Both the position numbers and the translations under genes were made by a program. A stretch of 64,000 bases of DNA from Bacteroidia bacterium (GTDB lineage: Bacteria > Bacteroidota > Bacteroidia > AKYH767-A > OLB10). Positions within the stretch are counted from its first letter, which is position 1; every line of letters starts with the position of its first letter. The notes beneath the pieces are model-generated. The model was given only the letters and a program-made list of their open reading frames with translations. It searched no databases and was not told where the DNA came from. Shown here one piece after another: positions 11,204-59,439 of the stretch. The DNA lies in contig JAEUTH010000021.1 in assembly GCA_016788165.1 (NCBI GenBank), forward strand, positions 153,046-217,045, read 5' to 3'.

Positions 11204-11983
11204 ATGGCAGTAAGGTATCTCTTAAAAAAATTGTTTTGTTTATTACTGCTCTTGTTTACGGGTGAGTTTTTGCTGGCACAATACCGTCCGTTTAATGCTT
11301 TAGACTATGATACCGATTTTTATAAAGTAAAATCGCAAAATATTTCGTTTAAAAATGTAACTGTAAAATTGATAAAAGTAAACACCAAGGCATCTGTCGA
11401 AAGCGATTTTTATTGCAGAGCCTGGTTGGTCGTATTGGTAAACGATTCTTTGTGTGATAGTTTGTATTTTGATAATATGGTAGGTAAAGCCGGCTGTTCG
11501 GGTATATGCTTTGAAACCGAACAGCCTCTTGTTGATAATTTAATACTCGTAAAATATGGCGATTATGATGGTAGAACGATTGTAGTTGACAGCCAAGGCA
11601 AAGTACATAATTTGCAAGGTGGGCGTTATTTCCTTACACGCGATAAACGCTTTTTATTTTCTGTGTATGAGTCAGATTTAAATGGACTTACGGTTTATGA
11701 TTTTAAATTTAAAAAAGTGGCTTATTCCAACGATTCATTAAACAGTAAGTTAAACGAATGGTATTTTCAGGAAGGACGCTATTTTTCATTAGATCAGGAA
11801 GCTGAAGAGGAAGATGTCGAATCAGAAAATATAAACGAATTGCCAAGTTTTAATATCAAACAATTTGATTTTATAAAACGACAACTTAAAGCCGAAAAAT
11901 TACCATTCGAAAATTTAAGGCAGGAAAATGCAATAACCTTAAAACCTAAGTTTAAAAATAAACCCGATTGCATTTGCAAATAG
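11204..11983 (+). CDS. hypothetical secreted protein
   Basis: 259 aa with an N-terminal signal peptide and an acidic stretch near the C-terminus. No recognisable domain. Confidence 0.4.
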   Translation: MAVRYLLKKLFCLLLLLFTGEFLLAQYRPFNALDYDTDFYKVKSQNISFKNVTVKLIKVNTKASVESDFYCRAWLVVLVNDSLCDSLYFDNMVGKAGCSGICFETEQPLVDNLILVKYGDYDGRTIVVDSQGKVHNLQGGRYFLTRDKRFLFSVYESDLNGLTVYDFKFKKVAYSNDSLNSKLNEWYFQEGRYFSLDQEAEEEDVESENINELPSFNIKQFDFIKRQLKAEKLPFENLRQENAITLKPKFKNKPDCICK

Positions 11984-12883
11984 TTACTTGGATCGCGGGT
12001 GAAACTGCATAATAGTTTCGCGTAAAAATGTGCGATTTAAGTGTGTATATATTTCGGTGGTGGTAATGCTTTCATGCCCTAACATTTCCTGTACAGCGCG
12101 TAAATCGGCACCACCTTCAACCAAATGCGTTGCAAACGAATGCCGGAATGTATGTGGCGAAATTTTTTTTGTAATACCTGTTTTTATTGCCAGTGCTTTT
12201 ATAATATTAAATATCATGATGCGGCTTATTTTTTTGCCCCCTCTGTTAAGAAACAGATAGTCAGAATGGCTTGTAGCAATTGTTTGATGATTGCGTGTTT
12301 TTTCAAAATAATTTTTTAATTGTCTGATAGCAATTTGTCCGATAGGTACCAGCCGTTCTTTATTGCCCTTGCCTATAACTTTAATAAATCCAATTTCGAA
12401 ATAAATGTCGGATATTTTAAGTGAAACCAGTTCGCTAACCCGCAAGCCGCAACTATATAAGGTTTCTATAATAGCCTTATTACGTTCGCCATCAGGTTTG
12501 CTCAGGTCAATTACAGCCAATATTGTTTCTATTTCATCTACCGATAATACATCAGGCAATTTACGGCCAAGCTTGGGCGATTGTAATAAGCGCGTAGGGT
12601 TTTTTTGGATGATATTTTCTACCATCAAATATTTATAAAAAGCTTTGATGCCGGAAATAATACGTGCTTGCGAATGTGCACTCATGCCTAAGCTATGTAT
12701 CCAAGCAATAAAATCCTGTAAATGAGAAAGGGTTATCTGCTCGGGCGGGATATTAATTTCTTTAAAATTTAAAAATTGTAACAACTTATTTAAATCATCG
12801 GCATAGGCCTCTAATGTATTTTTCGAAAGCGACCTTTCTAATAACAAGTAGGACTCGAAACCTTTTATATATGACTGCCACAT
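11984..12883 (-). CDS. xerD: site-specific tyrosine recombinase XerD
   Basis: 299 aa. Phage-integrase N-terminal SAM-like domain plus a catalytic domain with the R...HxxR...Y pattern (HTFRHSFATHL ... EIYTH). Confidence 0.85.
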   Translation of the reverse strand: MWQSYIKGFESYLLLERSLSKNTLEAYADDLNKLLQFLNFKEINIPPEQITLSHLQDFIAWIHSLGMSAHSQARIISGIKAFYKYLMVENIIQKNPTRLLQSPKLGRKLPDVLSVDEIETILAVIDLSKPDGERNKAIIETLYSCGLRVSELVSLKISDIYFEIGFIKVIGKGNKERLVPIGQIAIRQLKNYFEKTRNHQTIATSHSDYLFLNRGGKKISRIMIFNIIKALAIKTGITKKISPHTFRHSFATHLVEGGADLRAVQEMLGHESITTTEIYTHLNRTFLRETIMQFHPRSK

Positions 12884-13507: not shown

Positions 13508-14602
13508 CTATTTTGCTTTTTGAATTGCTGATTGGCCTGCTTTAAATGCAAAGTAAAAAAACACGGATAGCAGTATAATAAAATAACCACCAAACAATAA
13601 GGTAAACTCCCAACTCCAGGTTATAATATAACGTTTAATGTAGGTAATCAGAAAAATACTGTTTGCACTTATGCCTGCAAAAATATAAGCAACCTGGCGG
13701 TCGGATAAACCTAAGTAAGCCAGGCTATGTGTTGTATGATCGCGGCCACCAACAAAAGGTGATTGCCCACGCGACACGCGATTAACTACAACTACAGTTG
13801 TATCAATTATAGGAACAATGAAAGCAATTAATGGAATTATAAATTGTTTGCTTAAAACAACAGCAGCATTAGGGGCATAATAATCGTTCCAAAAATACAT
13901 TATACCCATTGACGACAAAAACACACCTAGGAACTGGCTGCCTGTATCGCCCATATACATTTTTGAAGGATGCCAGTTAAAAAATAAAAATCCGGTTAAC
14001 GAAGCAAGTACACCCACTAAAACTATGAGGTGAATATTATTGTAATCATGTTCCATAAACACCATTACGATAATAATTAATAAAATAAACAGCGATACCA
14101 TGGTTGTAATACCATCCATATTATCTAACATATTAATGCTATTCATAATACCCACAACCCATAACACAGTTAAAAAATAATTTAGCCAATTGCTTTCAAA
14201 AACATGGATATAAATGCCACTATAAATAAGCACAATTGCGCATAAAAACTGAACCGAAAATTTTAATAAAGGTCTTGTATTGTAAGCATCATCGGCTAAG
14301 CCTACTAAAAAGCCTAAGGCCATACTTAACAATAACCCCACAAATTTTACATTATAATTTGAACCGGTTTCTTCAGGCGTAAAAAAAACGGCATAGCTGG
14401 CTACCGAAGCCAAAAATAAAATGTAAAATGAAATACCACCAATGGCAGGTTTTGATGTGCTGCTCCATCTGATAATTTCACCACCACTGTTTTTAGTACC
14501 TAAGGTGCTCGAAAATTTTAAAAACAAACGATTTATCAGGAACGAAAACAACGTACAAAAAACAAAGTACGTTCCATACAAAATAATGTAATGACTATTC
14601 AA
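13508..14602 (-). CDS. undecaprenyl-phosphate sugar-1-phosphate transferase (GT4 MraY/WecA family)
   Basis: 364 aa polytopic protein with the NMxDNMDGIT motif of the MraY/WecA polyprenyl-phosphate N-acetylhexosamine-1-P transferases. Confidence 0.8.
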   Translation of the reverse strand: MNSHYIILYGTYFVFCTLFSFLINRLFLKFSSTLGTKNSGGEIIRWSSTSKPAIGGISFYILFLASVASYAVFFTPEETGSNYNVKFVGLLLSMALGFLVGLADDAYNTRPLLKFSVQFLCAIVLIYSGIYIHVFESNWLNYFLTVLWVVGIMNSINMLDNMDGITTMVSLFILLIIIVMVFMEHDYNNIHLIVLVGVLASLTGFLFFNWHPSKMYMGDTGSQFLGVFLSSMGIMYFWNDYYAPNAAVVLSKQFIIPLIAFIVPIIDTTVVVVNRVSRGQSPFVGGRDHTTHSLAYLGLSDRQVAYIFAGISANSIFLITYIKRYIITWSWEFTLLFGGYFIILLSVFFYFAFKAGQSAIQKAK

Positions 14603-16271: not shown

Positions 16272-17197
16272 CCACGCTTTCAGTTATTGTACCATTTTAT
16301 TTTAATCAGGCTAATGTGCAGGTTACTACGGATACATTGTTCGAGAACGAAAAACTATTTGAGCCCGATTTAAAGTTTCAATATATTTTTATTGATGATG
16401 GAAGCAAAGATGATACGCTTCAACTCTTAAAACAAGTGAAGCAAAATAGTAGCCGGCAAATAGTAATTATAAAACTTGCAGGCAACTTTGGTTCGTATAA
16501 TGCCATACTTGCCGGGATGCAATATGCAACCGGTGATTGTAACGTGGTTATTACTTCCGACCTGCAGGACCCGCCACCATTAATTTTAAAAATGTATAAC
16601 TACTGGCAACAAGGGTTTAAATTGGTTTTGGCTAACCGTAACAAACGAAACGATTCATTTATTACCAATTTTTTTGCTAACACTTATCATAAGCTCATTA
16701 AAAAATTTGCTTCAATTAATTTGCCAGATGGTGGATTTGATTTTTGCTTATTTGATAAACAACTACGTCAACAAGTAGTTGATATGGATGAGAAAAACAC
16801 CAACTCATTGTATTTATTAGTTTGGCTTAAATACGATTACATAAGCATTGCCTACACAAGGCAAGAGCGTAAGCTGGGCAAAAGCCGCTGGACGTTAAAT
16901 AAAAAAATTAAGCTTTTTATTGATTCGTTTGTGTCGTTCAGTTATTTGCCCTTGCGACTTATTACTGTTGGTGGTTTAATTATGGGCATATGTGCATTTA
17001 TGTATGCTTGCTATGTGCTGTTTGCAAAACTTACGGGCATGGTACATGTTGAAGGATGGAGTGCATTAATGGTAGTTTTTTTATTGGTATCCTCCTTTCA
17101 ATCAATTGCACTGGGCATTATTGGCGAATATTTATGGCGCAACCTGGAGCACAGTCGAAACAGACCTGCTTACGTAGTTGATGAGGTATATAAATAA
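16268..17197 (+). CDS. GT2 polyprenyl-phosphate glycosyltransferase (ArnC/GtrB/DPM1-like)
   Basis: 309 aa. GT-A N-terminal domain (VIVPFY..., DDGSKDDT, DxD-like DLQD) plus two C-terminal TM helices as in GtrB/ArnC. TTG start. Confidence 0.75.
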   Translation: MTTLSVIVPFYFNQANVQVTTDTLFENEKLFEPDLKFQYIFIDDGSKDDTLQLLKQVKQNSSRQIVIIKLAGNFGSYNAILAGMQYATGDCNVVITSDLQDPPPLILKMYNYWQQGFKLVLANRNKRNDSFITNFFANTYHKLIKKFASINLPDGGFDFCLFDKQLRQQVVDMDEKNTNSLYLLVWLKYDYISIAYTRQERKLGKSRWTLNKKIKLFIDSFVSFSYLPLRLITVGGLIMGICAFMYACYVLFAKLTGMVHVEGWSALMVVFLLVSSFQSIALGIIGEYLWRNLEHSRNRPAYVVDEVYK

Positions 17198-19055
17198 GAT
17201 GGATGCATTACATAATCAAATTGGCTGGGTATTTCTGATTTTGATTATAAGCATTTTTGTTTTGCTTGTAATAGGTCATGTGGTAAAAGCTTTATTAGGT
17301 TTAGCCTCTGCTGATAAAACCGGCTATTATGCATTACTAACAGGCACTGTTTTTTTTGTCCTTTTTTCAGCAACTATTTTAAGTTGTTCTAAAACCATAA
17401 TGTTAGGCTTCGTATTGATTTTTGTTTTTCTTAATAATAAACCTTATAAAATAAAATGGCCCTCAATAAATAATGTTTTGCATGTTGTAATTATTGCATC
17501 TGCTTTTTTTACTATTCAATATCTAACAATTTTTAACGGCAATGAGTTGCCGCTGTTGCCCGAAGGTGATGCATTGTATTATGCACGATTGGCAAGCAAA
17601 ATGGCCGAAACCGGAATTGAAAACACCAACCTGTATGGCAATGAAGGCAGGGAGCCCTATCATTATTTTGATTTGTGGATAACGGCTACGCTTATAAAAT
17701 TTACAAAGTTCAATCCTTACCTGATATTAAAGCTAATTGTATATCCTATTTTGCTTACAATTTTATATGCAGGTTATTTTTTATGGGCATGCAGTAAAAA
17801 TTTAAGTAAATTAAACTCGGCATTGTTGGCTTTGCTGCTGTGTTTCTTTTCAGGATTTTATCTGCTGGCTTTCGATAAAATTAATTATGTAAACGATAGC
17901 GTATTGTTTTTTTATAGCGCAATAACGTACCCCAAATTATTGGTTATATATATTTTTATTCAAGCTGCTTTTATAAGTTACATCAGTAAAAATAATTTCA
18001 ATGCCATAACCTGGTTAGCATGCTTGCCACTTTGTTTTATTACAGTTGTACCGGTTTATTCAGCTTTGTTGTGCATTTTAATATTGCTAATTGCATTAAA
18101 ACTTACCAGTGTTAAATGGCAACAAGTTTTACCTGCAGTTTTTATTGTTGTTTTTATATTGATATTTTATTTACTGCAACCGGTTTCTACTACTATAAAT
18201 GGTGATAAGATTAATTCAGTTGATTCTTTTTTCTCGCTGAAATATTTTGTAACAGCTTTCAATATTTTTTTAGTTACGGTTGCTCAGTTCGTTATTGCGT
18301 ACAGCATTTGGATTGTTATTGCTTTATGGCTTTTATATAAATGTGCAGATTCAGCGTTTAAACAAGCTACATTAATGTATTGTACGGGCTTTGCTTTTGC
18401 ATTGTTTATTTGGGCTGTGCTGCATCAGATTATGGATAGCGTGCAGTTGTTTTTTAATTTTATAATACCCGCAACTGCCATTTTTTGTTTTTATATTCTT
18501 TTACAAGTAATTGAGTATAAGAAAAAAGTATTTTTTGCAGTAGCTCTTTTGTTGTTAGGTTTTCGAGTGCTGCAGTTTTTTCATTTTAATGGCATAAAAA
18601 CAAATCCATACAGCAAAACCTATACAGATTACGTGAGCCGTCAAATTGATGGTAAAAACATGGTTGCTGCATCAATAATAAATGGAGTAAGTTACGACCG
18701 CATTTTTGCAAAAAACACACAGTTTAGGGTTAACGATGCATACCTTTATTATATCAATCCAACATATAAATGTCATGCTATATCGGTTATGGATGGTTAT
18801 AATGCTAAAGGAAATAAAGCGTTGGAGAAATTGTTTGTAGAGCAATCTGTATTTTATCAGTTTGTGCAACATCAAAAAGCAACGGGTGTTTTTCAGGATA
18901 TAGCACAAAGTCAGATTGATTTTATAAAAGAGAAAAAAATAAAACTTGTATTTGTAAACAAAGGCAGCTATGTAGCCGATTCAATTATTGCCTTAGCTGA
19001 TACTACTTTAACCGATACAGGGACAGGCGAAACTTTATTAATGTTATCCTATTAG
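17178..19055 (+). CDS. polytopic membrane protein, GT-C-like (ArnT/PMT-type) glycosyltransferase candidate
   Basis: 625 aa with at least 12 predicted TM helices followed by a roughly 150-aa soluble C-terminal domain. Start overlaps the GT2 stop; ATG at 17181 or 17199 is more likely than the TTG at 17178. Confidence 0.45.
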   Translation: MMRYINKMDALHNQIGWVFLILIISIFVLLVIGHVVKALLGLASADKTGYYALLTGTVFFVLFSATILSCSKTIMLGFVLIFVFLNNKPYKIKWPSINNVLHVVIIASAFFTIQYLTIFNGNELPLLPEGDALYYARLASKMAETGIENTNLYGNEGREPYHYFDLWITATLIKFTKFNPYLILKLIVYPILLTILYAGYFLWACSKNLSKLNSALLALLLCFFSGFYLLAFDKINYVNDSVLFFYSAITYPKLLVIYIFIQAAFISYISKNNFNAITWLACLPLCFITVVPVYSALLCILILLIALKLTSVKWQQVLPAVFIVVFILIFYLLQPVSTTINGDKINSVDSFFSLKYFVTAFNIFLVTVAQFVIAYSIWIVIALWLLYKCADSAFKQATLMYCTGFAFALFIWAVLHQIMDSVQLFFNFIIPATAIFCFYILLQVIEYKKKVFFAVALLLLGFRVLQFFHFNGIKTNPYSKTYTDYVSRQIDGKNMVAASIINGVSYDRIFAKNTQFRVNDAYLYYINPTYKCHAISVMDGYNAKGNKALEKLFVEQSVFYQFVQHQKATGVFQDIAQSQIDFIKEKKIKLVFVNKGSYVADSIIALADTTLTDTGTGETLLMLSY

Positions 19056-19057
19056 TT

Positions 19058-20125
19058 TTATGCAAATCGTTTACGAATAAAAATATTTAGCGGCTCCTCA
19101 ATCAGTTTAAAGCATATAATAGAAAGTACAGTTATCAAAACAAAACAGAGCCAAACGGGTAAACCCATTTTTAAAATAGCACTCATAAAAACGCCCATGT
19201 GCAGTAAATAAAAAGCATACGAGCTTTTGCCGAGTAATTGCACAAAAGGTACCGACAAAAATTTTTGTAAAAGTGTTTTTTCGAATATTAGTCCGTAAAA
19301 AAGCGGCACAATAGCAAACACCGGTAAAATCAAATTATTAATCAGAACACCTGCAGGATGATGTATTCCGGCAACATGATTGCCCTTAAAAATCGATATT
19401 AAATAAATACAAACTAAAAAGTTAAGTACACCAAGCAAACTGTAGTTAATTTTGAAACGAAATTTTATTTTTAAGTGAAGCATATAGGCTAATGCTATGC
19501 CGGCAAAAAATTCGAAACAACGACCCATAAAAGTATATATGGCCATAAAACCATAGCTACTCATAAAACTTTTACATCCGATGCTTTGCGAAGTTTTAAC
19601 GATGAGGCATCCCAGTATAAAAATTATAACAGGCAATACGACCATTGCAATTTTATTTTTTCGAATTGCTAAAAACCAAAGCGGTGCGGTTAAGTAAAAA
19701 ATTTCTTCAACCGTTAGTGACCATCCTTGCGCAATGCCTGTAAACTTTATATCGGCAAACAAACCCTTCAGAAAGGTAATGTTATAGAAGTATAAGTTTA
19801 AAAGCATTTTTGATGAAGGGCTTTGTATTCCAATCCATAAAAAGGTAATTGTAGTAAGAATAAAAAATAACGGATATATACGTGCGAACCGTCTAAAGAA
19901 GTATTTCTTAAAAGCTGTATTTGAATCGAACAAATATTTATGTGCAATTAAAAATCCACTTAGCACAAAAAACAACGTAACACCTGTATGAAATTCGTTT
20001 ACAATGCCCCACAATATTTCGCAACCTGCAATATCTTTAAATGGGTTGTAATGATGCAAAAACACCATGTATGCTGCTATGGCTCTTATACCGGTTAAAG
20101 CCTTAAAGAAATCCGGTTGTGCCAT
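19058..20125 (-). CDS. acyltransferase family 3 (OafA-like) membrane O-acyltransferase
   Basis: 355 aa with 10 TMs and an N-terminal AIAAYMVFLHH motif typical of acyltransferase-3. Confidence 0.75.
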   Translation of the reverse strand: MAQPDFFKALTGIRAIAAYMVFLHHYNPFKDIAGCEILWGIVNEFHTGVTLFFVLSGFLIAHKYLFDSNTAFKKYFFRRFARIYPLFFILTTITFLWIGIQSPSSKMLLNLYFYNITFLKGLFADIKFTGIAQGWSLTVEEIFYLTAPLWFLAIRKNKIAMVVLPVIIFILGCLIVKTSQSIGCKSFMSSYGFMAIYTFMGRCFEFFAGIALAYMLHLKIKFRFKINYSLLGVLNFLVCIYLISIFKGNHVAGIHHPAGVLINNLILPVFAIVPLFYGLIFEKTLLQKFLSVPFVQLLGKSSYAFYLLHMGVFMSAILKMGLPVWLCFVLITVLSIICFKLIEEPLNIFIRKRFA

Positions 20126-20171
20126 TATTAAAATTTAAACAGGTTGGAGTTACAAAAGCACCTATTAGGTT

Positions 20172-22610
20172 TTATAAGCCGATTGTTTTTAAAATCCGTT
20201 GAAAGATGTTGGGTTTATCATCTTCATCGTAATAACCATAACCATAGCCATATCCGTAGCCGTAGCCATATCCGTAACCATAGCCATAACCATAACTGCT
20301 TCCATATCCGTAACCGTATCCATAGCCATTTTTGCTGGTATCAACACCGTTAAGTATAACTGATAAGTGTTTTACTTTACTTTCGTCAAGTAGTTTATTT
20401 ATATTATGTATAAACATTTTTTTACTGTAACGGCTACGCAAAATATAAATAGGCAAATCAACTTTTTGAATTAAAGGAATACCATCGCTAACGATACCAA
20501 TAGGTGGTGTGTCAATTATTACAACATCATACGAAAGTTTTAATTCCTGAATTAAATCTTCCATACGCTGTGATATAATTAATTCGGCAGGGTTAGGGGG
20601 GATAGGGCCTGCTGTGATAAAATCCAAACCGGGTAAGGAGCTTTTTTGAATACAGTTTTTAACCGAGTCTTTGCCAATTAATATGGTACTCATGCCATGC
20701 AAATTTTCGACATTAAACCCTAAGTGGATTTTGGGTTTGCGCATGTCTAAATCTAATATAGCCACACGTTTACCGCTAAATGCAATTACGCCAGCCAGGT
20801 TAATTGCATTAAATGTTTTTCCTTCGCCTGAAATGGTACTTGTAACAGCAAATACTTTTGCTGTTTCATCATTTATTATAAACTGTAAATTAGTTCGTAC
20901 GCTTCTGAAAGCTTCAGATATTATAGATTTCGGGTTTTTGTCAACCAGCAATTGCGATACAGGTATCTCGCGTTTATATTTAGGTATCATACCCAACAAG
21001 GCAGCATCGGTATATAGACTAACTTCTTCTAACGAAGTTATTTCGTTATACATCAGATATCTGAAAATTATTAAACCTAAGCTTAAAAAAAAGCCCAATG
21101 TAATGCAGCCACTTAGTATAAGGGGCTTGTTAGGTGATATAGGCACAAAGCGTGGTATGGCCGGCTCAAGTATAATATTGTCAGAGTCGTAGCCTGCTTT
21201 AGTAATTGCAAACTCAGCTTTCTTTTCTAATAAGAGTGAGTAAAATTTTTCGTTTATTTTATTAATTCGGATAAGGCGTGCATACTCTGTTTGACGCGAT
21301 GGCAAAACAACCATGGTGCTATTATATTGCCCAAGTTGTTTATCAATTTGAGCCATGCGAAGGCGCAAACTTGATTCTTCATTTTTTATATGTGCATTTA
21401 AAATTTGCACCTGATTGGCAATAGCAGCTTCTATAAAACTATAATTAGGTGCGCTGGTAGTTACTTCGTTCAGTAGTTGTTCTTTGTCTTTTAATAGTTT
21501 TAGAAGCTCTGTAGTTGCTTCATTAATATTACCTTCTTTATAAACGCCACTAAGACTTATAAGCATGGTTGTTATATCACGCTTGGCTTTCATTTCTGAT
21601 TTTAATTTATCAATCAATGCCAGTTTGTATTCCAGGTCAAAGCGTAAGTCGTCAAACCTGCGCATTTCGCTGTTAAGCATATTACCATAATCATCCGGAT
21701 CGAAAAATTTATTTCTTCGTTTAAATTCTTCAATCGAATCTTCTGATAAAATCAAAGCATGTTGAATATTGCTAACGGTTGTATCAATAAAATTTAATAT
21801 CTTATTGGTAACTTCTGTATTCTTTTTTAAATCGTAGCCTATAAACTCAGTGGTTATAGCATTTACAATGTCTGCAGCTTTTGTAGGACTGTTGTCTTTT
21901 AACCGTACGTATAATGTTTTTGCATCAGAGTTTACAATACCAACCAATAGTGCTGATGCGTATTTGGCTGCTTCAACATCTAAATTATTTATCGTAAAGT
22001 AGTAGGCATCGTTTTTAAATGTTTTCTGCTGATCGAGAATGGTATTGTAACTGTTTAAAGTTATTTTTAAACGCAATTCGGGCAATTCAATCCACTTGTT
22101 TATGTTGTAATCGGCTGTTACTTTATTGCCGTTGAATGTATAACTTAAATTAAACTGGTCTTGCTTAATCCATTCAATGTAAAATGGCAACCCAAATATT
22201 GCTGAGTCTTTAATGTAGTATTGTACATTATAGGGTGCCGAGCGATAAAGTTCCTGATCGAGTACAGTACCTTTGGCATAATAGCTAATATCAACCGGTA
22301 GCCTAACCAAGGCTTGTTTGGCTAATATGCGACTACGGATAAGTTCCATATCGCCTGCCATTTGGTTGCGGCTTTCTTCGGCAAAGTAATTTTTATTGAT
22401 ATCAAATACACTGTTCGCTTTATTTTGATTGGCGAGCTTTATAATGGAGTTTGATTCGAAAACGGGTTGTGTATATCGTAAGTATATGAGTGCCGTTAGA
22501 GCCGACACAAACATAAACAGTATTACCCAAATGAAATTACCCCGGGCAATAGAAACAAAGAGTTTTAAATCGAAATCTTCGTTAAGACTGGTAATTTTTT
22601 TTTTGGGCAT
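20172..22610 (-). CDS. polysaccharide co-polymerase / tyrosine autokinase (Wzc-like BY-kinase)
   Basis: 812 aa. N-terminal Wzz-like periplasmic domain between two TMs, C-terminal CpsD-like P-loop ATPase (Walker A TSTISGEGKT, Walker B VIIDTPP). Ends in a Tyr cluster expanded to (GY)n. Confidence 0.85.
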   Translation of the reverse strand: MPKKKITSLNEDFDLKLFVSIARGNFIWVILFMFVSALTALIYLRYTQPVFESNSIIKLANQNKANSVFDINKNYFAEESRNQMAGDMELIRSRILAKQALVRLPVDISYYAKGTVLDQELYRSAPYNVQYYIKDSAIFGLPFYIEWIKQDQFNLSYTFNGNKVTADYNINKWIELPELRLKITLNSYNTILDQQKTFKNDAYYFTINNLDVEAAKYASALLVGIVNSDAKTLYVRLKDNSPTKAADIVNAITTEFIGYDLKKNTEVTNKILNFIDTTVSNIQHALILSEDSIEEFKRRNKFFDPDDYGNMLNSEMRRFDDLRFDLEYKLALIDKLKSEMKAKRDITTMLISLSGVYKEGNINEATTELLKLLKDKEQLLNEVTTSAPNYSFIEAAIANQVQILNAHIKNEESSLRLRMAQIDKQLGQYNSTMVVLPSRQTEYARLIRINKINEKFYSLLLEKKAEFAITKAGYDSDNIILEPAIPRFVPISPNKPLILSGCITLGFFLSLGLIIFRYLMYNEITSLEEVSLYTDAALLGMIPKYKREIPVSQLLVDKNPKSIISEAFRSVRTNLQFIINDETAKVFAVTSTISGEGKTFNAINLAGVIAFSGKRVAILDLDMRKPKIHLGFNVENLHGMSTILIGKDSVKNCIQKSSLPGLDFITAGPIPPNPAELIISQRMEDLIQELKLSYDVVIIDTPPIGIVSDGIPLIQKVDLPIYILRSRYSKKMFIHNINKLLDESKVKHLSVILNGVDTSKNGYGYGYGYGSSYGYGYGYGYGYGYGYGYGYGYYDEDDKPNIFQRILKTIGL
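20229..20327 (-). repeat. coding (GY)n dipeptide repeat, an imperfect hexanucleotide (GGNTAY)n tract
   Basis: + strand reads ...accataaccatagccatatccgtagccgtagccatatccgtaaccatagcc... Antisense translation is NGYGYGYGYGSSYGYGYGYGYGYGYGYGYGYGYY. Confidence 0.9.
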
Positions 22611-22612: not shown

Positions 22613-23380
22613 TTACAAGGTGCGTATAAATACAGCAACAACCACTACACTACTAATAATGGCCATAATAGGGGCCAGTTCTTTAAGTATGCCTTGCGAT
22701 ATTTGTGGTGTAGGTTCTACGTATATAATATCGTTAGCTTGTAATAGCAGGTTAGATTGTTTAAGTCCTTCAACCGTACTTAAATCAATTAGCATAATTT
22801 GCGGATTACGTGTATCGCCTCTAACCAATTTAATTTTATAAGCTTTACCTGTTTCGGTAACACCACCTGCCGCAGCTAAGGCTTCAATTAAGGTTGTGTT
22901 TTCGTTTTTTAAATTAACAACGGTACCTCTGCCACCTGTACCGGTAAATACCATAACGCGTCTGTTAATTACAGTTATTATACTAAATGGATTTTTATAA
23001 TAGATGGCATATTTTTCTTCTACTAATTTTTCAGCCTCCTGTTTGGTTAAGTCTTTAATTTTCACTTTTCCAATTTGTGGCAACCTAACATAACCTTCCA
23101 CATCAACTGTAAAGTTTATGGCATCGTTAACGGCATCGTTGGGTATGCGGGCTGCCGAAGTGGTAGTGGTAGTTGCCATCATGGGTTCTATTAATTTATA
23201 ACCATCATTGTTATAAATGCTGAATTCGATTATATCATTCGGGGCTATACGATATTCCAGATTACCTATGGTTTGATCAATAGAGTAGGGGTAATTTTTA
23301 GGGGTTTTAAACATTACACTGCTATTGATGTAACATCCACTACAAGATAGCATGGCAATAATAACAATTAACTTACGCAT
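22613..23380 (-). CDS. polysaccharide export outer-membrane protein (Wza/BexD family)
   Basis: 255 aa with a lipoprotein-type signal (LSCSGC), Poly_export and SLBB domains. Sits 2 nt upstream of wzc. Confidence 0.8.
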   Translation of the reverse strand: MRKLIVIIAMLSCSGCYINSSVMFKTPKNYPYSIDQTIGNLEYRIAPNDIIEFSIYNNDGYKLIEPMMATTTTTSAARIPNDAVNDAINFTVDVEGYVRLPQIGKVKIKDLTKQEAEKLVEEKYAIYYKNPFSIITVINRRVMVFTGTGGRGTVVNLKNENTTLIEALAAAGGVTETGKAYKIKLVRGDTRNPQIMLIDLSTVEGLKQSNLLLQANDIIYVEPTPQISQGILKELAPIMAIISSVVVVAVFIRTL

Positions 23381-23525: not shown

Positions 23526-24710
23526 TTATATGCCTAAAAGTTTGTCATACAATTGCGTCATATCGCTAACAAGCCTTGTATAATTAAATTGTGAATTAAC
23601 ATGGTTTAGGCCCCAATTGCTCATTTGATCCCGCAGCATATCGTCATTTACAAGCGTAATTAAATTTTGTGCAAAGGCATTTACATCGTTCGATGTCGAT
23701 AGTAGCGCTGATTTACCCGGTATAACCACATTTTCGATGCCACCCACCTGGGTTGATACGATTGCTTTTGAAGCTGCCTGTGCTTCGATTAAACTTACCG
23801 GTGTACCTTCATTTAATGAAGTTAATGCAACAATATCTAAACCCGCTAAGGCAATATCCACATCCTGAATCCAGGATGTAAAAGTTAAGTTTGCCTGGTT
23901 ATTGTATTGTGTGGGTGTATTAAAAACAAGGCCTTGGTTTTTACACATTTCTTCAATTTGCTGGCGCAATTCGCCATCGCCAATTATAAATGCATGAACA
24001 GGTTTTGTTACACTTTTTAAAAGGATGTGAAATGCTTTGATAAACAATTGATGGTTTTTTACCGGCACCAAACGACCAATTATGCCAATTGCTATTGTAT
24101 TGTTAAGTTTATGTTGTAGCCTGAATTGTTTTCGTTTTTCAGACATGTTATGTGTAAACCTGCTAAGGTCGAAACCTAATGGTATTATATATGTGTTTTG
24201 AGGTTTGCATACTTTATATGTTTCAGACAATTCTTTTTTCTGGACTTCGCTTAAAACCACAATACCATTTGTTTTAGCAGCTAAGTAACGTTCGATTTGT
24301 AAAAATAACTTAGTTGTAGTACTGCTAAAATACGAGTGAAAATAATGGCCATGAAATGTGTGTAGTATAACAGGTACTTTACAGTGCAAAGCTGCCAAAC
24401 GTCCAACGGTACCCGGTTTTGCCATGTGTGTATGCACAATGTCGGGTTTAAATTCTTTTATAATTTTTTTTATTTTTTGATAGGCCAGGTAATCGTCTTT
24501 GGGATTTATTGCCCTTTTCATTTCGGAGACATATACAGGTTTAAGATTGTATTTGTCTAAAATGAAATTTGAACTGGCCTCAGTATCGTCTATGGCTCCT
24601 GAAACTAATTGGGTTTCATAACGCGCATCCATAAATTTGGTTAAAAAAGCAACGTTGTATGTAGGCCCTCCTAAATTTAAACGGTTTATTATTCGAAGAA
24701 TGCGTGGCAT
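23526..24710 (-). CDS. glycosyltransferase family 4 (GT-B)
   Basis: 394 aa with a Glyco_trans_4 N-terminal domain and a Glycos_transf_1 C-terminal domain with the E...E pattern (TSLNEGTPVSLIEAQA). Confidence 0.8.
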   Translation of the reverse strand: MPRILRIINRLNLGGPTYNVAFLTKFMDARYETQLVSGAIDDTEASSNFILDKYNLKPVYVSEMKRAINPKDDYLAYQKIKKIIKEFKPDIVHTHMAKPGTVGRLAALHCKVPVILHTFHGHYFHSYFSSTTTKLFLQIERYLAAKTNGIVVLSEVQKKELSETYKVCKPQNTYIIPLGFDLSRFTHNMSEKRKQFRLQHKLNNTIAIGIIGRLVPVKNHQLFIKAFHILLKSVTKPVHAFIIGDGELRQQIEEMCKNQGLVFNTPTQYNNQANLTFTSWIQDVDIALAGLDIVALTSLNEGTPVSLIEAQAASKAIVSTQVGGIENVVIPGKSALLSTSNDVNAFAQNLITLVNDDMLRDQMSNWGLNHVNSQFNYTRLVSDMTQLYDKLLGI

Positions 24711-44644: not shown

Positions 44645-47600
44645 ATGAAAAAAGGTTATACGAATTTGTTTACGGTTCTGTTTATGTTTTTGTGTTTGGT
44701 AACGCAAGCGCAATTAAAAGATGCACATACTAAAATTAACGCAACTGATGCACAACAAGAAGTTGCCGACATTAATGCAGCACTTAAAAATGGATCAAAT
44801 GCTTTAATGGCTTTAGATAGCATACCTCAGTGTAGTGCTGTTTGGACTTATGGTGGTGGTACAGGTGTTGTCCCCGATAACAACAGCAACGGCTTAACCA
44901 TGAATTTTAATATTAATGATATAGCCGGAACTAACTTAGGTACGGATGTTAATTTAGTTGGCGTATCAATTACCTTACAACATTTTAGAATTGGCGATAT
45001 AAGTATCGAGTTAATTGCTCCAAATGGTGTTAAAATTCCTTTGGTTGATCGTATGGGGTATCCGGCAACTTTACCTTATGGCTGTACCGGTAAAAATATT
45101 AATGCCACATTTTTAAGAGGTACCGGTGCCGAGGCCGAAAACGTTTGTGCTACACCACCCCCGGCTTTGAAAGGTGTTTACTCAGCCGATTTTGGTTTTA
45201 ATTTAGACAGTATAAACTTAGCCGGTGGTTCACCTAATGGCCAGTGGAAATTAAAAGTATATGATGCACAGGCAGGTGAAATTGGTTATGTTTTGAATTG
45301 GAAAATGTATTTCGACCAACAACCACCCAATGCCGTATTTACAACCAATGCTATTGGCTTATTTGTAAGCCTTAATGCACAAAACACATTAAATGGAAAT
45401 GCAACCTATATATGGGAGTTTGGTGATGGCGATAGTGCGGTTGGCCAATCTGTTACACATCAATATCCGGTCCGTGGCCAGTACACCATTAAACTATTGG
45501 TAATTGATGCTTGTGGAATTGATTCGGCCAAAGCTACCTACAGCTTAGAACCTCCACCATGTTTTGCCGAATTTCCTTCAACAACAACACCTACACCTAT
45601 TACCGATAATAACCCTGCCGGTGATACTTTAGTTATTAATACCAACCAGGTAATTGGTTCAAAATTGGGCAAAGATGTGCAACTTCGTAAAGTTTGTATT
45701 CAGGGTACACATCCAAGGGTTGGCGATTTAAAAATGAAATTGATTTCGCCCGGAGGTGTCGAAATTTTATTTATTGACCGAACTTATTATCCATTTCAGC
45801 AGCCTTACGGTTGTTTAAATTCTGATTTTAACTACTGCATTATTCATGGCGATTCATTAGATGGAGAATTTAAATGTGATGCAACCGGTGCCGCAATTAA
45901 AGGCGAATTTACAGCCATGACGCCTCAGGATTTGCGTCAGGTAAACGATTTAGTTACCAACCCAAATGGTGCTTGGAAATTAGTAGTTTATGATATGGCA
46001 GCCGGGCAAACCGGTGTTGTAACTAATTGGAGCCTTTTGTTTGACCAACAAGACCCTGATGCAGATTATACTTATACATTTAGTGGCTTAACGGTTGATA
46101 TTACTTCTAAAAATTTGCCTGCCGTTAACTACCGTTGGGATTTTGGAGATGGTACACCAATTGACACCAACAAAAGCCCTTCGCATACATATGCTACACC
46201 CGGCACTAAAACAATAACCGTATATACTGATAATGTTTGTAGCCGCGATACTTTGGTACGTAACATAACCCTTTATGCTTGCGAAGAACAATTTGTATAT
46301 CCATCGGTACCGGTTGCCATTCCAGATATTGATTCAACCGGAATACTTATACCTTTTAATATTACAGGTGTTGATGGCGTTAATCTGGGAGTTGATGCAT
46401 TTATAACCCGTGTTTGTATTACCAGCGACCATATATGGCCGGGCGATTTAAAAATACAACTAATAGCTCCTAATGGTAAAGTAGTGCCTATTATTAATCA
46501 ACCTACGCGCGCATTAACTTTAGCAGGTTGCGGTGCACCGGGAATTGATATGTGTATTGTGCAGGGAAGCGGAAACGATACACGCTTCGTTTGCGACTAC
46601 GTAAATGCACCTCCGGCAATAAAAGGGTTTTATACTGCCAATGCCGGCTACCCTCTCGAATCAATAAATTTGGCAGGAGGTAACCCCAATGGCACCTGGT
46701 ACTTAAATGTATTTGATTATGCATTATTTAAAACGGGAAATATTACCAGTTGGAGTTTATATTTTGGTAAACTAAAGCCAAACGTAGATTTTACATATAC
46801 AGCGAACGATTCAGGGCTTGCATCATTCACTATACCAAATGCATCAACCAATTATTTATGGGTTTTTGATAATGGTGATACAAGTACCAGCCTAACACCT
46901 ACACATCAATATCCAGCTAATGGCATATATCAGGTAAAATTAATTGCAATCGATTCGCTTTGTTTAAGCGATTCGATTGTTAAGGATGTTTACATCACCT
47001 CTTTTAACAGAGGTTGTGTTTCACCATTTGTATATCAGGGTACAGCAGTTCCAATTGCCGATGCCGATTCGGTAAACGGATCCGTTTTAAACTTTAATGT
47101 AAGTGGTGTTTTAGGAGATACCTTAGGCACCAACGTAAACCTTTATCGCGTTGCCGTTAAAGGTAAACATGGCAGGGTAGGCGATTTAAAATTCAAACTA
47201 ATTGCACCCAATGGCTTAAGCACAATTTTAGTTGATAGGCCCGGTTACCCAACAACAAACGAAGGTTGCTTACAACGTGATTTTCAATTTATTTTAAGTA
47301 ATGGGCAAGGAGCCAACTTAGAAACTATGTGTAATGAAACCGGATTGGCATTGTTTGGTAATGTGTTATCAGATAAAGCTAACGATTTAGGTACTATCAA
47401 TTTTGGTGGTGGAAACCCAAATGGCATTTGGCAATTAGTTGTTTATGATTATAAAACCGATTGGATAGGTCAAATTGATGGATTGTCTCTTTACTTCGAT
47501 GGGCAGCCTACACATGCCGACTTTATTTACAACATTAAAAAAGATACCGTTGTTTTCAGACATGCAGCGCCATTAAATGCAACAACCAAATGGAGTTTTG

Positions 47601-50600
47601 GTGATGGTACTTTTAGCAATAACCGATTCCCTACTAAAATTTATGCTGATACAGGTATGTATCAGGTGCAGTTGATTGTTACAGATACTTGTGGCATGGA
47701 TTCAATTACCCAAATTGTTCATATAACAGAAGTAAGACCCAAGTGCGTAGATGTAAGAAGATATGTTGGCCCTAAAAACATTCCGAATAATAATCCGGCA
47801 GGTGTTTATATCAACCTGAACTTAAATAATGTGATAGGAAACACATTAGGTAAGGATGTAAGTTTAGTGCGTGTGCGACTAAAAGGTAGAATTACCAAAG
47901 TAGGCGACTTAACGGCTAAGCTTATTGCACCAAATGGAAAGGCTGTTGATTTGTTTCACCGTGTTGGACATCCCGCCAAACCATTAGGCTGCGAACGCGA
48001 TAACTTTGATATAAATTTTGTTAGAGGCTTTGGCCCGGGTGCTGAGCTAATATGTAATACCGTTGGTACTGCATTAGCAGGTACGGTAACAGCAATGGCA
48101 GGCCAAAACTTAGACTCTATTAATATTATGGGCGGTAGCCCCAACGGTAATTGGCAATTGTTTATGAGTGATTTGTCAGCCAATGCTTTTGGCGAACTGG
48201 ATACTTTTGAACTGTATTTTGACGCCCAGGGTTTTGTAAATGCTGATTACAACTACAGTCAATCTTTAACTACCTATACATTTAATTCGGCAAACATTGC
48301 AGGTGTACAGTACCAATGGAATTTTGGTGATGGCACAAGTGCTGCCGGTAGTACAGTTGCACATCAATTTGCTGCTTCAGGCACTTATAATGTTACGTGT
48401 TATGCAAAAGATTCATGCCGCACCGATAGTATCACCAAAATTTTTGTAGTAAATAACTATGATGAACCGGCTACATGTAAAACCACATTAACCGCTACCA
48501 ACTTACCATTATCAATTCCTAATAATGTAACATCAGGAATTGATGTAACTATAAATGCAACTAATTTATCAGGCGCCACATTAGGTGTTGATGTAAATTT
48601 GTATAAGGTTAAAGTAATTGGAACTCATGATAGAGTAGGCGATTTAATAATAACACTAACCGCTCCAAACGGCCGAAAGGTTACGCTAATGGATCGTCCT
48701 GGTTATCCTAATACAATAAATGGTTGTGGTGGCGATAATTTTGATTTTAACGTAATCAGAGGTGTGAATGCATCTGTAGAAAATGCATGTGTGCCTGCAT
48801 CAATTCCATCTATAGCCGGTACATTTAGTGCCGAAGCCGATAATTTAGATTCGATAAATATTTTAGGTGGCAATCCAAATGGCCTTTGGACTTTAAACAT
48901 CAGCGATAACAATGCAACCGTTGGTGGTGGTACCATAACCGGATTCGAATTACTGTTCGATAAACAATCTACTGCTTTAGCAACATTTAATACATCCGTT
49001 TTTGCTAATGAACTAACAGCAACAATACCGGTTGAAACTGGCGTTACCTATACTTGGAATTTTGGCGATGGCAATACTGCGACCGGAGATAGTGTTTGGC
49101 ATGCTTATGCTATGCCGGGCGTTTATACCGTAACATTGCAAGCTGCCGATTCTTGTGGTTTCAATCAAACTACACAACAAATTACAGCAGGTAATTATCC
49201 GATAGAAGCTTGTACCAAAACCTACCTTGCCGATTCGCTACCTAAAGCCATTCCTGATAATGATACTACAGGCGTATATGCCTATTTCCAATTAAATAAT
49301 GTAATTGGTAATACACTTGGCAGTGATGTAAAACTTACCGGAGTTTGTATTAAAGGCAATCACACAAAAGTTGGCGATTTAAAAATTACACTCATTGCAC
49401 CTAATGGCAAATCGGTATTATTGATGGACAGACCCGGTTTTCCGGCTGTGGGAGGTTGTTCCGGAAACGATTTTAATTATTGTGTAGTAAGAGGTATTGG
49501 TAACAGCGTTGAAAATGTTTGTAATGCAAGTGTTCCTACAATTAGCGGAACCTATACCGCTATGCAAGGTTTTAACCTTGACTCGATTAACGTAGCCGGA
49601 GGTTCGCCAAATGGTTTATGGACTCTTTTTGTACAAGATGTAGCACCTGCTAATTCAGGTGGAAATTTAACTGGATTTAATTTAACCTTCGATAATCAGC
49701 AAGGGGTTAATGCAGCATTTACTTACAATGTTGCCGGAAATGGTATGCAGTTTAATTCCCCCAATCAGCCCAATGCAATTTACAATTGGAGTTTTGGCGA
49801 TGGACAAACATCAACATCGGCTACGCCAATAAATTATTATGCACAAAGTGGCACATATACAGTTGTTTTGGTTGCTACCGATAGTTGTGGTACCGACTCA
49901 ACTACACAAGTAGTTAATGTATTTGTTTATCCCGAACCTACCTGTACACGTACGTTTACATTAAACAGTGCACCTGTACCCATGCCCGATAATATTGCAC
50001 CGGGAGCAATTATTGGTGCAACCTTAGCCGGCATTGATGGTACCAATTTAGGTTCTGACGTAAACCTTACCGGAGTTTGTGTTTCGGGCAAGCACACTAA
50101 CGTGGGCGATATACGATTGGTTTTAGTTGCACCAAATGGCGCTACTATAAATTTAATGAATCAGCCGGGCGCACCTGCTTTGCCTAAAGGATGTAGTGGC
50201 GATGATTTTGATGTTTGCTTTATAAGAAATACCGGATTTTATTTGGAAGATACATGCCGCAGTACGATTCCTGCAATTGAAGGCACATTTACTGCTTCCA
50301 ATGGTTTCGACTTACAAACCGTAAATACAACAGGAGGCAATCCAAATGGCTTATGGCGCTTGTTTGCTGCTGATTTAGCACCTTTAGATACCGGTGAAAT
50401 TACTTCAGTAACGCTCACATTTGATAATCAGATTTTAACCAATGCTGCTTTTACTTATAGTTTAAATAATAATGAGTTGCAGTGCACCAGTACACCTTCA
50501 CCTAATGCTACATATCAGTGGACCTTTGGCGATGGCAGCACCAGCACCGATGCAAACCCAATTTATACTTACAATACAAATGGTTTCTTCAATATAACAC

Positions 50601-58848: not shown

Positions 58849-59439
58849 TTACTTTACATTTGCCCAGCATAACCCACGTGCTATACGTGAAATTTGCATT
58901 TCGCTTACTCCAAAGTTTTCGGCAATTTTAAATTGCAAGTTGCCGGCTTTTAATTGTTTTTTAATTTTTGAAACCTGTTCGCGGTTAAGTTTGGCGGATA
59001 CTGTACCCATACGTGCAGCATATTGTTTATTTCTTTCAGCGGTGCGGTTAACAACGGTTGCAGGCAGGCTCCATTCTAAATTGCTTGCTTTGTTATCTAA
59101 TTTATTCCAATTGTTGTGTATCACAATACTTGCTTTTGGGCTTTTGCGTTTTACAAAATGTTCGGCAACTAAGGTGTGTACATAACGCATTTTTCGTTCA
59201 TTATTAAATACAATATCTACAGCCAAATAACCATTAACTGTTTTGCCTTTTACCAGTTTGCCATTTTCTTTATCGAAGTAAAAACCTATTAAACGCCCCA
59301 TATTGCTAATTAAGTATTTGCGATCGCTGTTTTTTAAAGGTTTCCATACTTCGTTTTTTAAAGAAGTAACCGGTTTCGATTTTGCCTTGTTATTTGTTAA
59401 GACAGGCTTTACAGCTTTACTTACTTTTTTTGTTGCCAT
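58849..59439 (-). CDS. NUMOD4 / HNH_3 homing-endonuclease-like protein
   Basis: 196 aa. EVWKPL...SNMGRL...NGYL...HTLVAEHF...HNNWNKLDNKASNLEW matches the NUMOD4 + HNH_3 pattern of phage free-standing HNH endonucleases. C-terminal HTH-like segment. Confidence 0.7.
   Translation of the reverse strand: MATKKVSKAVKPVLTNNKAKSKPVTSLKNEVWKPLKNSDRKYLISNMGRLIGFYFDKENGKLVKGKTVNGYLAVDIVFNNERKMRYVHTLVAEHFVKRKSPKASIVIHNNWNKLDNKASNLEWSLPATVVNRTAERNKQYAARMGTVSAKLNREQVSKIKKQLKAGNLQFKIAENFGVSEMQISRIARGLCWANVK

Follow-up and report, generated by a model that had tools for sequence, protein, structure and literature searches.

A Wzc-Type Tyrosine Autokinase from a Bacteroidia Bacterium with a Long GY Tail of a Lineage-Typical Kind

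The gene described here occupies positions 20172..22610 (minus strand) of a 64,000-nucleotide stretch of DNA from a Bacteroidia bacterium, referred to below as the window. From an ATG start to a TAA stop, it encodes a complete fused BY-kinase of 812 residues, a capsule/exopolysaccharide tyrosine autokinase of the PCP-2a, Wzc type, which carries near its C-terminus an extended tract of alternating glycine and tyrosine. The best explanation of the whole, held with good confidence, is that this wzc-type gene provides the inner-membrane co-polymerase/tyrosine autokinase of a Bacteroidota Wza–Wzc polysaccharide export locus and that its product bears an extended YxY ratchet tail typical of the lineage. 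All genes, motifs, and protein segments located below lie on the minus strand.

Protein Architecture and Kinase Motifs

Pfam places Wzz at residues 12–99, GNVR at 440–518, and AAA_31 at 585–703 of the protein, and NCBIfam assigns TIGR01007 above threshold (169.4 bits, cutoff 108.05); weak MinD matches appear in both scans. The equivalog models of E. coli Wzc (NF008568, 220 bits versus a cutoff of 1068) and Etk (NF007350, 186 bits versus 1248) are not reached, and because the score falls so far under the Wzc cutoff, the protein is to be regarded, on sequence grounds, as a member of the family and not as an orthologue of enterobacterial Wzc/Etk. Its sequence matches in the PDB are Wzc (E 2e-50), CapB, Etk, BceF, and VpsO, and its AF2 model (pLDDT 82) retrieves the full-length E. 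coli Wzc cryo-EM chains with Foldseek (E 1e-41) and reaches a TM of 0.90 with CapAB. AF2, Pfam, and Foldseek together give a layout in which a coiled-coil periplasmic domain lies between two transmembrane helices and is followed by the P-loop kinase and a disordered tail. Transmembrane helix 1 (residues 26–44; 22479..22535) is the hydrophobic stretch FIWVILFMFVSALTALIYL, modeled by AF2 as a helix at 26–46, and transmembrane helix 2 (residues 497–516; 21063..21122) is LILSGCITLGFFLSLGLIIF, modeled as a helix at 495–519.

The catalytic motifs were examined in an alignment with 48 homologues. The oligomerisation motif ExxRxxR, defined for helix α2 of BY-kinases (PMC9800525), is found as EAFRSVR at residues 566–572 (20895..20915), where E566, R569, and R572 show no variation. 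G597 and K598 are invariant and T599 nearly invariant in the Walker A P-loop (TSTISGEGKT, residues 590–599; 20814..20843), as are D622 and R624 in Walker A′ (VAILDLDMR, residues 616–624; 20739..20765), with D620 invariant in a 17-sequence alignment, and D700 and P703 in Walker B (VVIIDTPP, residues 696–703; 20502..20525). The protein has the sequence features expected of a BY-kinase: Walker A, A′, and B, ExxRxxR, the C-terminal tyrosine cluster, and a fused co-polymerase domain. An earlier note on this DNA, which had proposed a Wzc-type BY-kinase with canonical Walker motifs and a C-terminal Tyr cluster, is borne out by the Pfam and NCBIfam assignments, the structure match, and the intact Walker motifs. 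A pseudokinase, comparable to EcpK of M. xanthus, was considered and ruled out, since every catalytic motif is intact and invariant.

The Export Locus and Known Systems

The wzc start is preceded at a distance of 2 nt by the stop of a gene for a short Wza-like outer-membrane polysaccharide export protein of 255 aa (22613..23380; Pfam Poly_export and SLBB), upstream of which lies a gene for a GT4-fold glycosyltransferase (23526..24710; Pfam Glycos_transf_1). An Acyltransferase_3 family gene (19058..20125; Pfam PF01757) follows wzc after 46 nt, and a Glycos_transf_4 gene (13508..14602; Pfam, WecA/WbpL-like) is the candidate for the initiating transferase of the polysaccharide region. No tyrosine phosphatase of the LMW-PTP or PHP type was found in the 64-kb window, either by Pfam among the 44 of its ORFs with 150 aa or more or by a six-frame scan for the LMW-PTP motif CxGNxCRS and CpsB-type PHP signatures; D.H.H matches fall only in Lon protease and a second stretch, which lacks the PHP-type continuation. 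Among 80 related loci, a PHP phosphatase gene lies directly downstream of the kinase gene in eight, and the cognate phosphatase gene may sit at another site in the genome, as is the case for ltp1 in P. gingivalis.

Wzc of E. coli (K-12 colanic acid and K30 capsule; PDB 7NHR, 9R62, 3LA6) is about 21% identical to the window protein and shares with it the order of TM1, periplasmic coiled-coil, TM2, P-loop kinase, and Tyr tail, as well as Walker A/A′/B, ExxRxxR, the YxY spacing, a tail ending in YY, and an adjacent wza. The tails differ in extent, as 16 Tyr are spread over 32 almost purely GY residues in the window protein and 6–7 Tyr over about 11 residues in E. coli; moreover, K-12 Wzc, with 720 residues, stops 5 residues past Y715, the last Tyr of its cluster, whereas in the window protein an acidic patch and a predicted amphipathic helix of 11 residues follow. 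Unlike in E. coli, no wzb-type phosphatase gene is found near the window wzc, and the Wza is short.

Closer in taxonomy is Ptk1 (PGN_1524) of P. gingivalis, an experimentally characterised BY-kinase of the same phylum, residues 541–821 of which autophosphorylate (PMC4082711). It is similar in size (821 versus 812 aa), has wza immediately upstream, and is likewise a transmembrane protein with Walker A/A′/B and a C-terminal Tyr-rich cluster (PMC4082711). The loci diverge directly downstream of the kinase gene, where P. gingivalis has the PHP phosphatase gene php1 (PMC8863745) and the window has the acyltransferase gene. Acinetobacter Wzc has strictly alternating Tyr (Y712/714/716/718/720/722; PMC9800525), so that A. 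baumannii and A. lwoffii match the window tail in alternation, but with six Tyr versus sixteen and in a proteobacterial protein.

The GY Tract and the Tails of Relatives

The tyrosine cluster, delimited by sequence, Tandem Repeats Finder (TRF), and AF2, is a 33-residue (GY)n tract at residues 762–794 (20229..20327) that ends in YY. It reads GYGYGYGYGSSYGYGYGYGYGYGYGYGYGYGYY and consists of 16 Tyr, 15 Gly, and 2 Ser, one Tyr fewer than the "about 17" of the earlier note; the C-terminus as a whole is ...VDTSKN-GYGYGYGYGSSYGYGYGYGYGYGYGYGYGYGYY-DEDDKPNIFQRILKTIGL. The Tyr occupy positions 763, 765, 767, 769, 773, 775 and so on to 793, followed by 794, so that 13 of the 15 successive spacings equal two residues, one equals four, and the last is the terminal YY. 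The four-residue step stays in register, Ser771 occupying a Tyr slot, and the strict two-residue GY register claimed for the tail holds without a break. Four membrane-proximal Tyr are thereby separated by the Ser771 gap from a run of 11 Tyr in an i/i+2 series (773–793) plus Y794, and the spacing on which the YxY ratchet depends, with tail Tyr at i and i+2 (PMC11986026), is present. Over residues 760–800, the AF2 pLDDT is below 50, pointing to a disordered tail. Since homologues have a like tail at the same place, the tract is not a chance low-complexity run.

Among 270 distinct relatives, almost all from Bacteroidota, the number of Tyr per tail has a median of 8 and reaches 14 at the 95th percentile and 20 at most; five tails have at least 16, which puts the window tail at roughly the 98th percentile. 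Longer tails exist, with 20 Tyr in L058, 19 in L071, and (GY)13 in L047. The tracts of the relatives, which range from about 10 to 37 aa, are 51% Y and 36% G, and 72% of their Tyr-to-Tyr spacings equal two. Of the 30 proteins of the nearest clade, 27 have a 24-residue tail with 13 Tyr, and 23 of these tails are identical, while the protein bodies behind them are 51–100% identical (median 59.5%); lengths in and near this clade (24, 26, 28, and 32) go in steps of two residues, and the window tail is 8 residues longer than the usual one and has 3 more Tyr. A word-indexed search of 5.8 billion protein clusters and an exhaustive search of 1.84 billion representatives, together standing for about 15 billion proteins, yielded no relative more than 55% identical.

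Judged by these comparisons, the window tail is a moderately expanded copy of a lineage-normal style, at the long end of the range. Its description as exceptionally long is justified relative to the 3–6 Tyr of the studied model kinases (PMC9800525) but not within the Bacteroidota family, where alternating GY is the rule and still longer tails are known. Tail length in the nearest clade is conserved, not hypervariable, and probably held by selection, because 27 of the 30 nearest tails are equal while body identity falls to 51%; the suggestion that the tail might be novel gives way, for the most part, to a conserved lineage feature. No published description of a GY-type tail was found, and a full-text search for "YGYGYGYG" returned no BY-kinase paper.

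The Acidic Patch and the Predicted C-Terminal Helix

The terminal YY is directly followed by the acidic patch DEDD (residues 795–798; 20217..20228). Among 256 relatives, the tract ends in YY in 185, and at least two of the next four residues are acidic in 169. The extreme C-terminus, IFQRILKTIGL (residues 802–812; 20175..20207), is an amphipathic segment that AF2 models as a helix at 802–811, with the modest confidence of a block pLDDT of about 66; its hydrophobic moment is 0.81 (z 2.4 against shuffles, family mean z 0.75). A comparable basic/hydrophobic C-terminal extension is present in 202 of 269 relatives. In the majority of relatives, then, the tail is followed by an acidic patch and a short, putatively amphipathic helix at the C-terminus, an extension for which E. 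coli K-12 Wzc leaves no space.

These last 11 residues are predicted to form a short basic/hydrophobic helix that resembles the C-terminal membrane-targeting helix of MinD, a protein that shares the MinD/ParA-type P-loop fold with BY-kinases. The counterparts of IFQRILKTIGL in relatives include GFFKRLFS and GLLSRLFS, to be compared with KGFLKRLFGG, which we take to be the C-terminal sequence of MinD. Unlike in MinD, the helix comes after a Tyr tract of 33 residues, and the protein that bears it already has a membrane anchor; membrane binding by the helix is putative.

Proposed Ratchet Mechanism

According to the ratchet model, tail tyrosines in YxY motifs are phosphorylated in the C-to-N order, and the ring disassembles after four phosphotyrosines (PMC11986026, PMC9800525). 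If the window protein works as the E. coli K30 and K-12 enzymes do, its kinase domains would form a ring in which each tail reaches the active site of the neighbour. Tail tyrosines would be trans-phosphorylated singly, from the C-terminal end inward, while the Tyr two residues upstream would sit in a pocket and enter next in a ratchet-like manner, as the YxY rule demands. Accumulated phosphate would break the ring, a phosphatase would reset it, and the cycle would set polymer length and govern export. On this view, the window protein's (GY)n tail is a long, almost uninterrupted YxY ratchet, and the graded phospho-rheostat suggested in the earlier note is essentially the established Wzc model (PMC9800525, PMC11986026).

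In K30 Wzc, the tyrosine pocket lies on the neighbouring subunit, in the E675 region (Yang et al. 2025, PMC11986026), and the sequence alignment over the E675 helix is weak and unreliable for mapping it onto the window protein. The terminal YY together with DEDD probably sets the starting point of the ratchet, since in E. coli a Tyr is brought into position in the active site by a Glu on its C-terminal side. Against an extended ratchet stands the reset half of the cycle, which is unseen in a window with no tyrosine phosphatase gene.

Alternative Explanations

It had also been proposed that Tyr number might vary between strains, the tail being encoded by a degenerate hexanucleotide repeat. The repeat itself is confirmed by TRF, which detects a 6-nt array at 20232..20329 (72–81% matches) along with an 18-nt period in the same tract (76% matches). 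A contingency tract, in which in-frame replication slippage makes Tyr number differ by strain and so tunes capsule production, would be consistent with this array; the family-wide spread of tail lengths implies gain and loss of units over long evolutionary times, and near-clade lengths differ in multiples of two residues. Two measures of the array, its period-6 identity and the length of its longest perfect run, were compared with those of synonymous-codon shuffles within the tract and of draws from window codon usage. Its longest perfect period-6 stretch is 15 nt, at chance level (expected 16.3–17.4; a run of 15 nt or more has a P of about 0.6). Identical GY dicodons stand side by side 3 times versus 3.2 expected, and family-wide such pairs are depleted (102 observed versus 143.7 expected, z -3.4). 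Because the 15-nt run matches random synonymous codon choice, the tract is not slippage-prone; its repetitiveness at the DNA level is no more than codon choice forces, and 27 of the 30 nearest tails keep the same length despite about 40% divergence of the body, which makes strain-variable Tyr number highly improbable. Duplication of larger units was sought at lags of 6 to 36 nt, and neither lag 18, the 18-nt period (P 0.12), nor lag 36 (P 0.067) is significant; a His/Asn/Arg/Ser-rich plus-strand ORF at 20144..20353 is only an antisense shadow of the repeat. Collapse or expansion of a repeat during sequencing or assembly might be suspected where the protein sequence is repetitive, but such an artefact can hardly be the explanation: heterogeneous codons make the k-mers unique, a typical short read exceeds the 99-nt tract in length, the frame runs intact into the YY-acidic motif and C-terminal helix shared with homologues, and equal or longer tails come from independent assemblies.

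With regard to function, the tail may be mostly spacer, only its last four or five Tyr being phosphorylated, with the other GY units serving as a flexible, near-neutral linker and the extra 8 residues representing neutral expansion. As four phosphates already break the E. coli ring, many of the 12–16 Tyr could indeed be spacer; the rings there disassemble at about four phosphotyrosines, and membrane-proximal Y705/Y706 are never phosphorylated (PMC9800525, PMC11986026). In the alignment, Y763 lies 9 residues past the invariant Asn754, and E. coli Y705 is at a similar distance past the matching Asn; tail length also varies widely in the broader family, and residues 760–800 have no AF2 structure. 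A neutral linker should drift, yet 23 tails are identical at a median body identity of 59.5%, and every second position is specifically Tyr rather than any small or flexible residue, so that we consider the spacer reading unlikely, though far from negligible. Alternatively, GY tails, whether the eight of one ring or those of neighbouring rings, might associate through Tyr–Tyr contacts into a gel- or fibril-like state, dissolved by phosphorylation, which would add a layer of control or exclude the phosphatase. The composition of the GY tail resembles that of [G/S]Y[G/S] low-complexity domains, and a structural role would fit with how strongly the tail is conserved, down to its exact sequence. 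That Y-cluster tyrosines, when unphosphorylated, might be in a phase-separated state was raised as worthy of a test in a 2022 review of BY-kinases (PMC9800525). Nevertheless, the tract has just 33 residues, and the simpler role of a kinase substrate accounts for its period-2 pattern, which leaves self-association very unlikely.

Significance for the Family

For annotation, the gene is a routine capsule/exopolysaccharide regulator of modest value as a comparison point. In a wider context, the ratchet model was built on tails of 5–7 Tyr, with the ring broken after four phosphorylations, whereas this whole Bacteroidota lineage carries 8–20 Tyr in an almost perfect YxY register, with one clade in which the tail sequence is better conserved than the enzyme that bears it. 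Should the ring come apart after a number of steps set by tail length, natural tails of 24, 28, and 32 residues could be used to test the idea.

A more speculative and rather improbable proposal is that the Bacteroidota Wzc tail is a three-part module comprising a counted, unbroken YxY ratchet of ~12–16 steps, selected for exact length, an acidic primer, and a terminal MinD-like helix. The primer, YY-D/E-D/E-D/E, would mimic phosphotyrosine and fix the start of the ratchet, and the amphipathic helix would fasten the distal end of the tail to the membrane or an adjacent subunit, making the tail a tethered loop whose release would be under the control of phosphorylation. Both the acidic patch and the amphipathic helix at the terminus are unreported, and they could mean an extra control element that is absent from the proteobacterial models. 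Were the module reading true, the family would offer a natural long-ratchet test case, in which the number of steps could be compared with ring lifetime and polysaccharide chain length.

Identity and Gene Neighbourhood of the Kinase

The ORF at 20172..22610 on the minus strand, with an ATG start and a TAA stop, encodes a protein of 812 aa, and its earlier designation as a Wzc-type BY-kinase holds at the level of the family. Pfam assigns Wzz (residues 12–99), GNVR (residues 440–518), and MinD/ParA-type AAA_31 (residues 585–703) domains, and the NCBIfam model TIGR01007 (“polysaccharide biosynthesis tyrosine autokinase”) gives 169 bits vs. a cutoff of 108; the NCBIfam equivalog models for Wzc and Etk of enterobacteria give scores far under their cutoffs. 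A PDB sequence search returns E. coli Wzc (2e-50), CapAB, Etk, BceF, and VpsO. The BY-kinase motifs, namely Walker A (TSTISGEGKT, residues 590–599), Walker A′ (VAILDLDMR, residues 616–624), Walker B (VVIIDTPP, residues 696–703), and the oligomerisation motif (EAFRSVR, residues 566–572), are intact, which excludes a pseudokinase, and the key residues of all four are invariant or nearly invariant in 17- and 48-sequence alignments. In the AlphaFold2 model (mean pLDDT 82), a long periplasmic domain of coiled coils lies between two transmembrane helices, and the kinase domain follows; Foldseek matches the model to cryo-EM chains of full-length E. coli Wzc (E 1e-41) and its kinase domain to CapAB (TM 0.90). 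Neither protein collection (5.8 billion clusters; 1.84 billion representatives) yielded a relative more than 55% identical to the protein, which makes the gene a new and fairly divergent addition to a known family.

The stop codon of a Wza-like exporter gene (22613..23380, minus strand) lies 2 nt ahead of the wzc start. Its product of 255 aa, with one Poly_export and one SLBB domain, is much shorter than E. coli Wza (~379 aa); it appears to carry a lipoprotein signal (…AMLSCSGC), and its C-terminal helix is hydrophobic. A glycosyltransferase gene is located farther upstream, beyond the Wza-like gene, an acyltransferase_3 gene begins 46 nt downstream of wzc, and other genes near wzc code for RmlC, a GT2, a hexapeptide transferase, and an initiating transferase of the Glycos_transf_4 family. 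No tyrosine phosphatase gene (LMW-PTP or PHP) was found within the 64-kb window. A CpsB-type PHP phosphatase motif directly follows the kinase gene, within ~100–150 nt downstream, in 8 of 80 related loci (L042, L052, L055, L057, L059, L060, L066, and L071), the same arrangement as in P. gingivalis, where php1 follows ptk1.

The polysaccharide gene region also includes a highly hydrophobic polytopic membrane protein of 625 aa (17178..19055, plus strand) without a Pfam match, which is a candidate for a polymerase or for another, unclassified membrane enzyme, and is bordered by a tyrosine recombinase (11984..12883, minus strand) with Phage_integrase and N-terminal SAM-like domains, which could be a housekeeping XerC/D or the mark of a mobile or invertible region. 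SusC/SusD genes and sorting domains for type IX secretion, present elsewhere in the window, assign the organism to Bacteroidota. The 2819-aa protein encoded at 44645..53104 (plus strand), with ~10 proprotein-convertase P-domains, 10–11 PKD domains, and a C-terminal sorting domain for type IX secretion, is a giant secreted or surface protein. A homing-endonuclease-like ORF (58849..59439, minus strand; NUMOD4 and HNH_3) directly adjoins SRP54 (ffh, 59508..60836). The 691-aa ORF at 56732..58807 (minus strand) and the 259-aa ORF at 11204..11983 (plus strand) match no Pfam family at E < 1e-4.

The Tyrosine Tract Compared with Its Relatives

The C-terminus of the protein reads ...ILNGVDTSKN-GYGYGYGYGSSYGYGYGYGYGYGYGYGYGYGYY-DEDDKPNIFQRILKTIGL. 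The tract of residues 762–794 (20229..20327, minus strand) consists of 33 residues, with 16 Tyr (763, 765, 767, 769, 773, 775 and so on to 793, and 794), 15 Gly, and 2 Ser. The two-residue register is unbroken, Ser771 fills a would-be Tyr slot, and a YY doublet closes the tract; residues 760–800 are predicted to be disordered in the AlphaFold2 model. The earlier note had correctly described a Tyr-rich GY tail, its count of about 17 Tyr being one too many. A plus-strand ORF opposite the tract (20144..20353, 69 aa, rich in His/Asn/Arg/Ser) is an antisense mechanical shadow of the repeat and no gene.

Relatives came from 5.8 billion protein clusters searched with a word index, from 80 loci on GTDB contigs (one genome per species), and from 1.84 billion cluster representatives searched exhaustively with HMMER; pooling and removal of duplicates left 270 distinct tails. 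These contain a median of 8 Tyr (95th percentile 14, maximum 20), and the tracts are 51% Tyr and 36% Gly, with a spacing of 2 in 72% of Tyr-to-Tyr steps. YY closes the tract in 185 of 256 relatives, and at least two acidic residues follow it in 169 of 256. At least 16 Tyr occur in five relatives, and pure (GY)n with n of at least 10 in six; longer tails belong to L058, a Chitinophagaceae MAG locus (20 Tyr), L071 from a Flavobacteriales MAG (19 Tyr), and locus L047 with (GY)13. The unbroken YxY chain of 11 Tyr in the window protein is equalled or exceeded in 41 of 256 relatives and amounts to 12 Tyr throughout the nearest clade. By these statistics, the tail therefore stands at about the 98th percentile by Tyr count, yet is typical of a lineage-wide design. 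It is exceptional, as had been claimed, only against the textbook models, whose clusters hold 6 (E. coli K-12 Wzc), 6 (Acinetobacter Wzc), 3 (CpsD), and 2 Tyr (EpsB) (review tables, PMC9800525).

Homologues from Campylobacterota MAGs (L066, L067, and L069; ~29–31% identity) also have GY tails, which suggests that the GY design either is anciently conserved or was transferred between phyla.

Conservation of Tail Length

Tandem Repeats Finder reports a degenerate 6-nt array at 20232..20329 (72–81% matches) and an 18-nt period (76% matches), the latter not significant when tested. Codons vary for both Gly (GGC/GGA/GGT) and Tyr (TAT/TAC), and perfect 6-nt periodicity extends over 15 nt at most, vs. 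16.3–16.5 nt expected from within-tract synonymous-codon shuffles and 17.4 nt from window codon usage draws (P ~0.6 for a run at least as long). Identical adjacent GY dicodons number 3 vs. 3.2 expected, and over 63 related loci they are depleted (102 vs. 143.7, z −3.4), the opposite of the trace expected from recent slippage. This suggests that, across the family, perfect repeats in the DNA are opposed by selection or disappear, the window tract itself being neutral.

A 24-residue tail with 13 Tyr is common to 27 of the 30 closest relatives, 23 of these 27 having exactly YGYGYGYSYGYGYGYGYSYGYGYY, whereas the rest of the protein has diverged to 51–100% pairwise identity (median 59.5%); the tail is thus better conserved than the enzyme in the nearest clade. 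The window tail departs from the clade consensus in having 8 residues and 3 Tyr more and in the Ser771 gap. With the repeat at chance level, dicodons depleted family-wide, and one tail shared by 27 of 30 relatives, the proposed variation of Tyr number by slippage finds no support among relatives at most 55% identical to the window protein. A tail conserved in the lineage is also the outcome that the earlier note had itself named as refuting novelty.

The Post-Tail Extension

The tract is followed by an extension (residues 795–812, 20175..20228, minus strand) that is also present in tails of the related loci (L001–L080) and proteins (P0001–P0209), altogether in 202 of 269 relatives; the median post-tract stretch over all 269 is 20 aa. 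The parts of the extension are an acidic patch, a linker rich in Lys/Pro, and a short segment of basic and hydrophobic residues: IFQRILKTIGL here, GFFKRLFS, GLLSRLFS, and PFIKRIINKILRR in relatives. AlphaFold2 predicts a helix at residues 802–811, and the hydrophobic moment of the segment is 0.81 (z 2.4 vs. shuffles; family mean z 0.75). The segment resembles the MinD membrane-targeting helix; a literature search turned up no paper that ties an amphipathic helix to Wzc. The extension is absent in E. coli K-12 Wzc, where Y715 is followed by five residues to the end (PMC9800525 and PDB alignment), and all three Campylobacterota homologues end directly after the acidic residues without it.

A Probable Ratchet Mechanism

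In E. coli, the kinase domains of Wzc assemble into an octameric ring with each tail inside the neighbour's active site; the C-terminal Tyr is phosphorylated first and the others follow inward, the Tyr at i−2 sitting in a pocket as the next to move in (“YxY ratchet”), and the K30 ring disassembles after the fourth phosphate, with Wzb resetting it (PMC11986026, PMC9800525). YxY is highly conserved among BY-kinases, the tail is disordered at the step where a non-Tyr (N711) occupies the i−2 slot, and a Tyr-to-Glu change puts the next upstream Tyr into the active site (PMC11986026). By analogy, the window protein most likely works in this way, and its (GY)n tail would be the purest form of the ratchet. 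Y794/Y793 would be the entry point, where the DEDD patch may imitate a preceding phosphotyrosine, because Glu in E. coli has this positioning effect; from Y773 to Y793 the ratchet could advance without interruption by as many as 11 steps, and at Ser771 it may naturally pause or stop. The invariant Asn754 precedes Y763 by nine residues, and E. coli Y705, which is never phosphorylated (PMC9800525), lies a similar distance past the matching Asn (PDB sequence alignment, read by eye); from this spacing, the first few Tyr are probably out of reach.

All of the reachable Tyr may be used, or only the last few; the strong conservation of the tail sequence counts against a purely neutral spacer. Association of unphosphorylated Y-cluster tyrosines into a gel-like or fibril-like state was put forward in a 2022 review (PMC9800525) as an idea worth testing. 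That the tract is an assembly artefact is unlikely given its heterogeneous codons, the preserved reading frame, and similar tails in many independent assemblies. The tail is typical of its lineage, with a length near the top of the family range. What interest remains lies in the Bacteroidota tail design as a natural test of the ratchet model and in the undescribed post-tail module.
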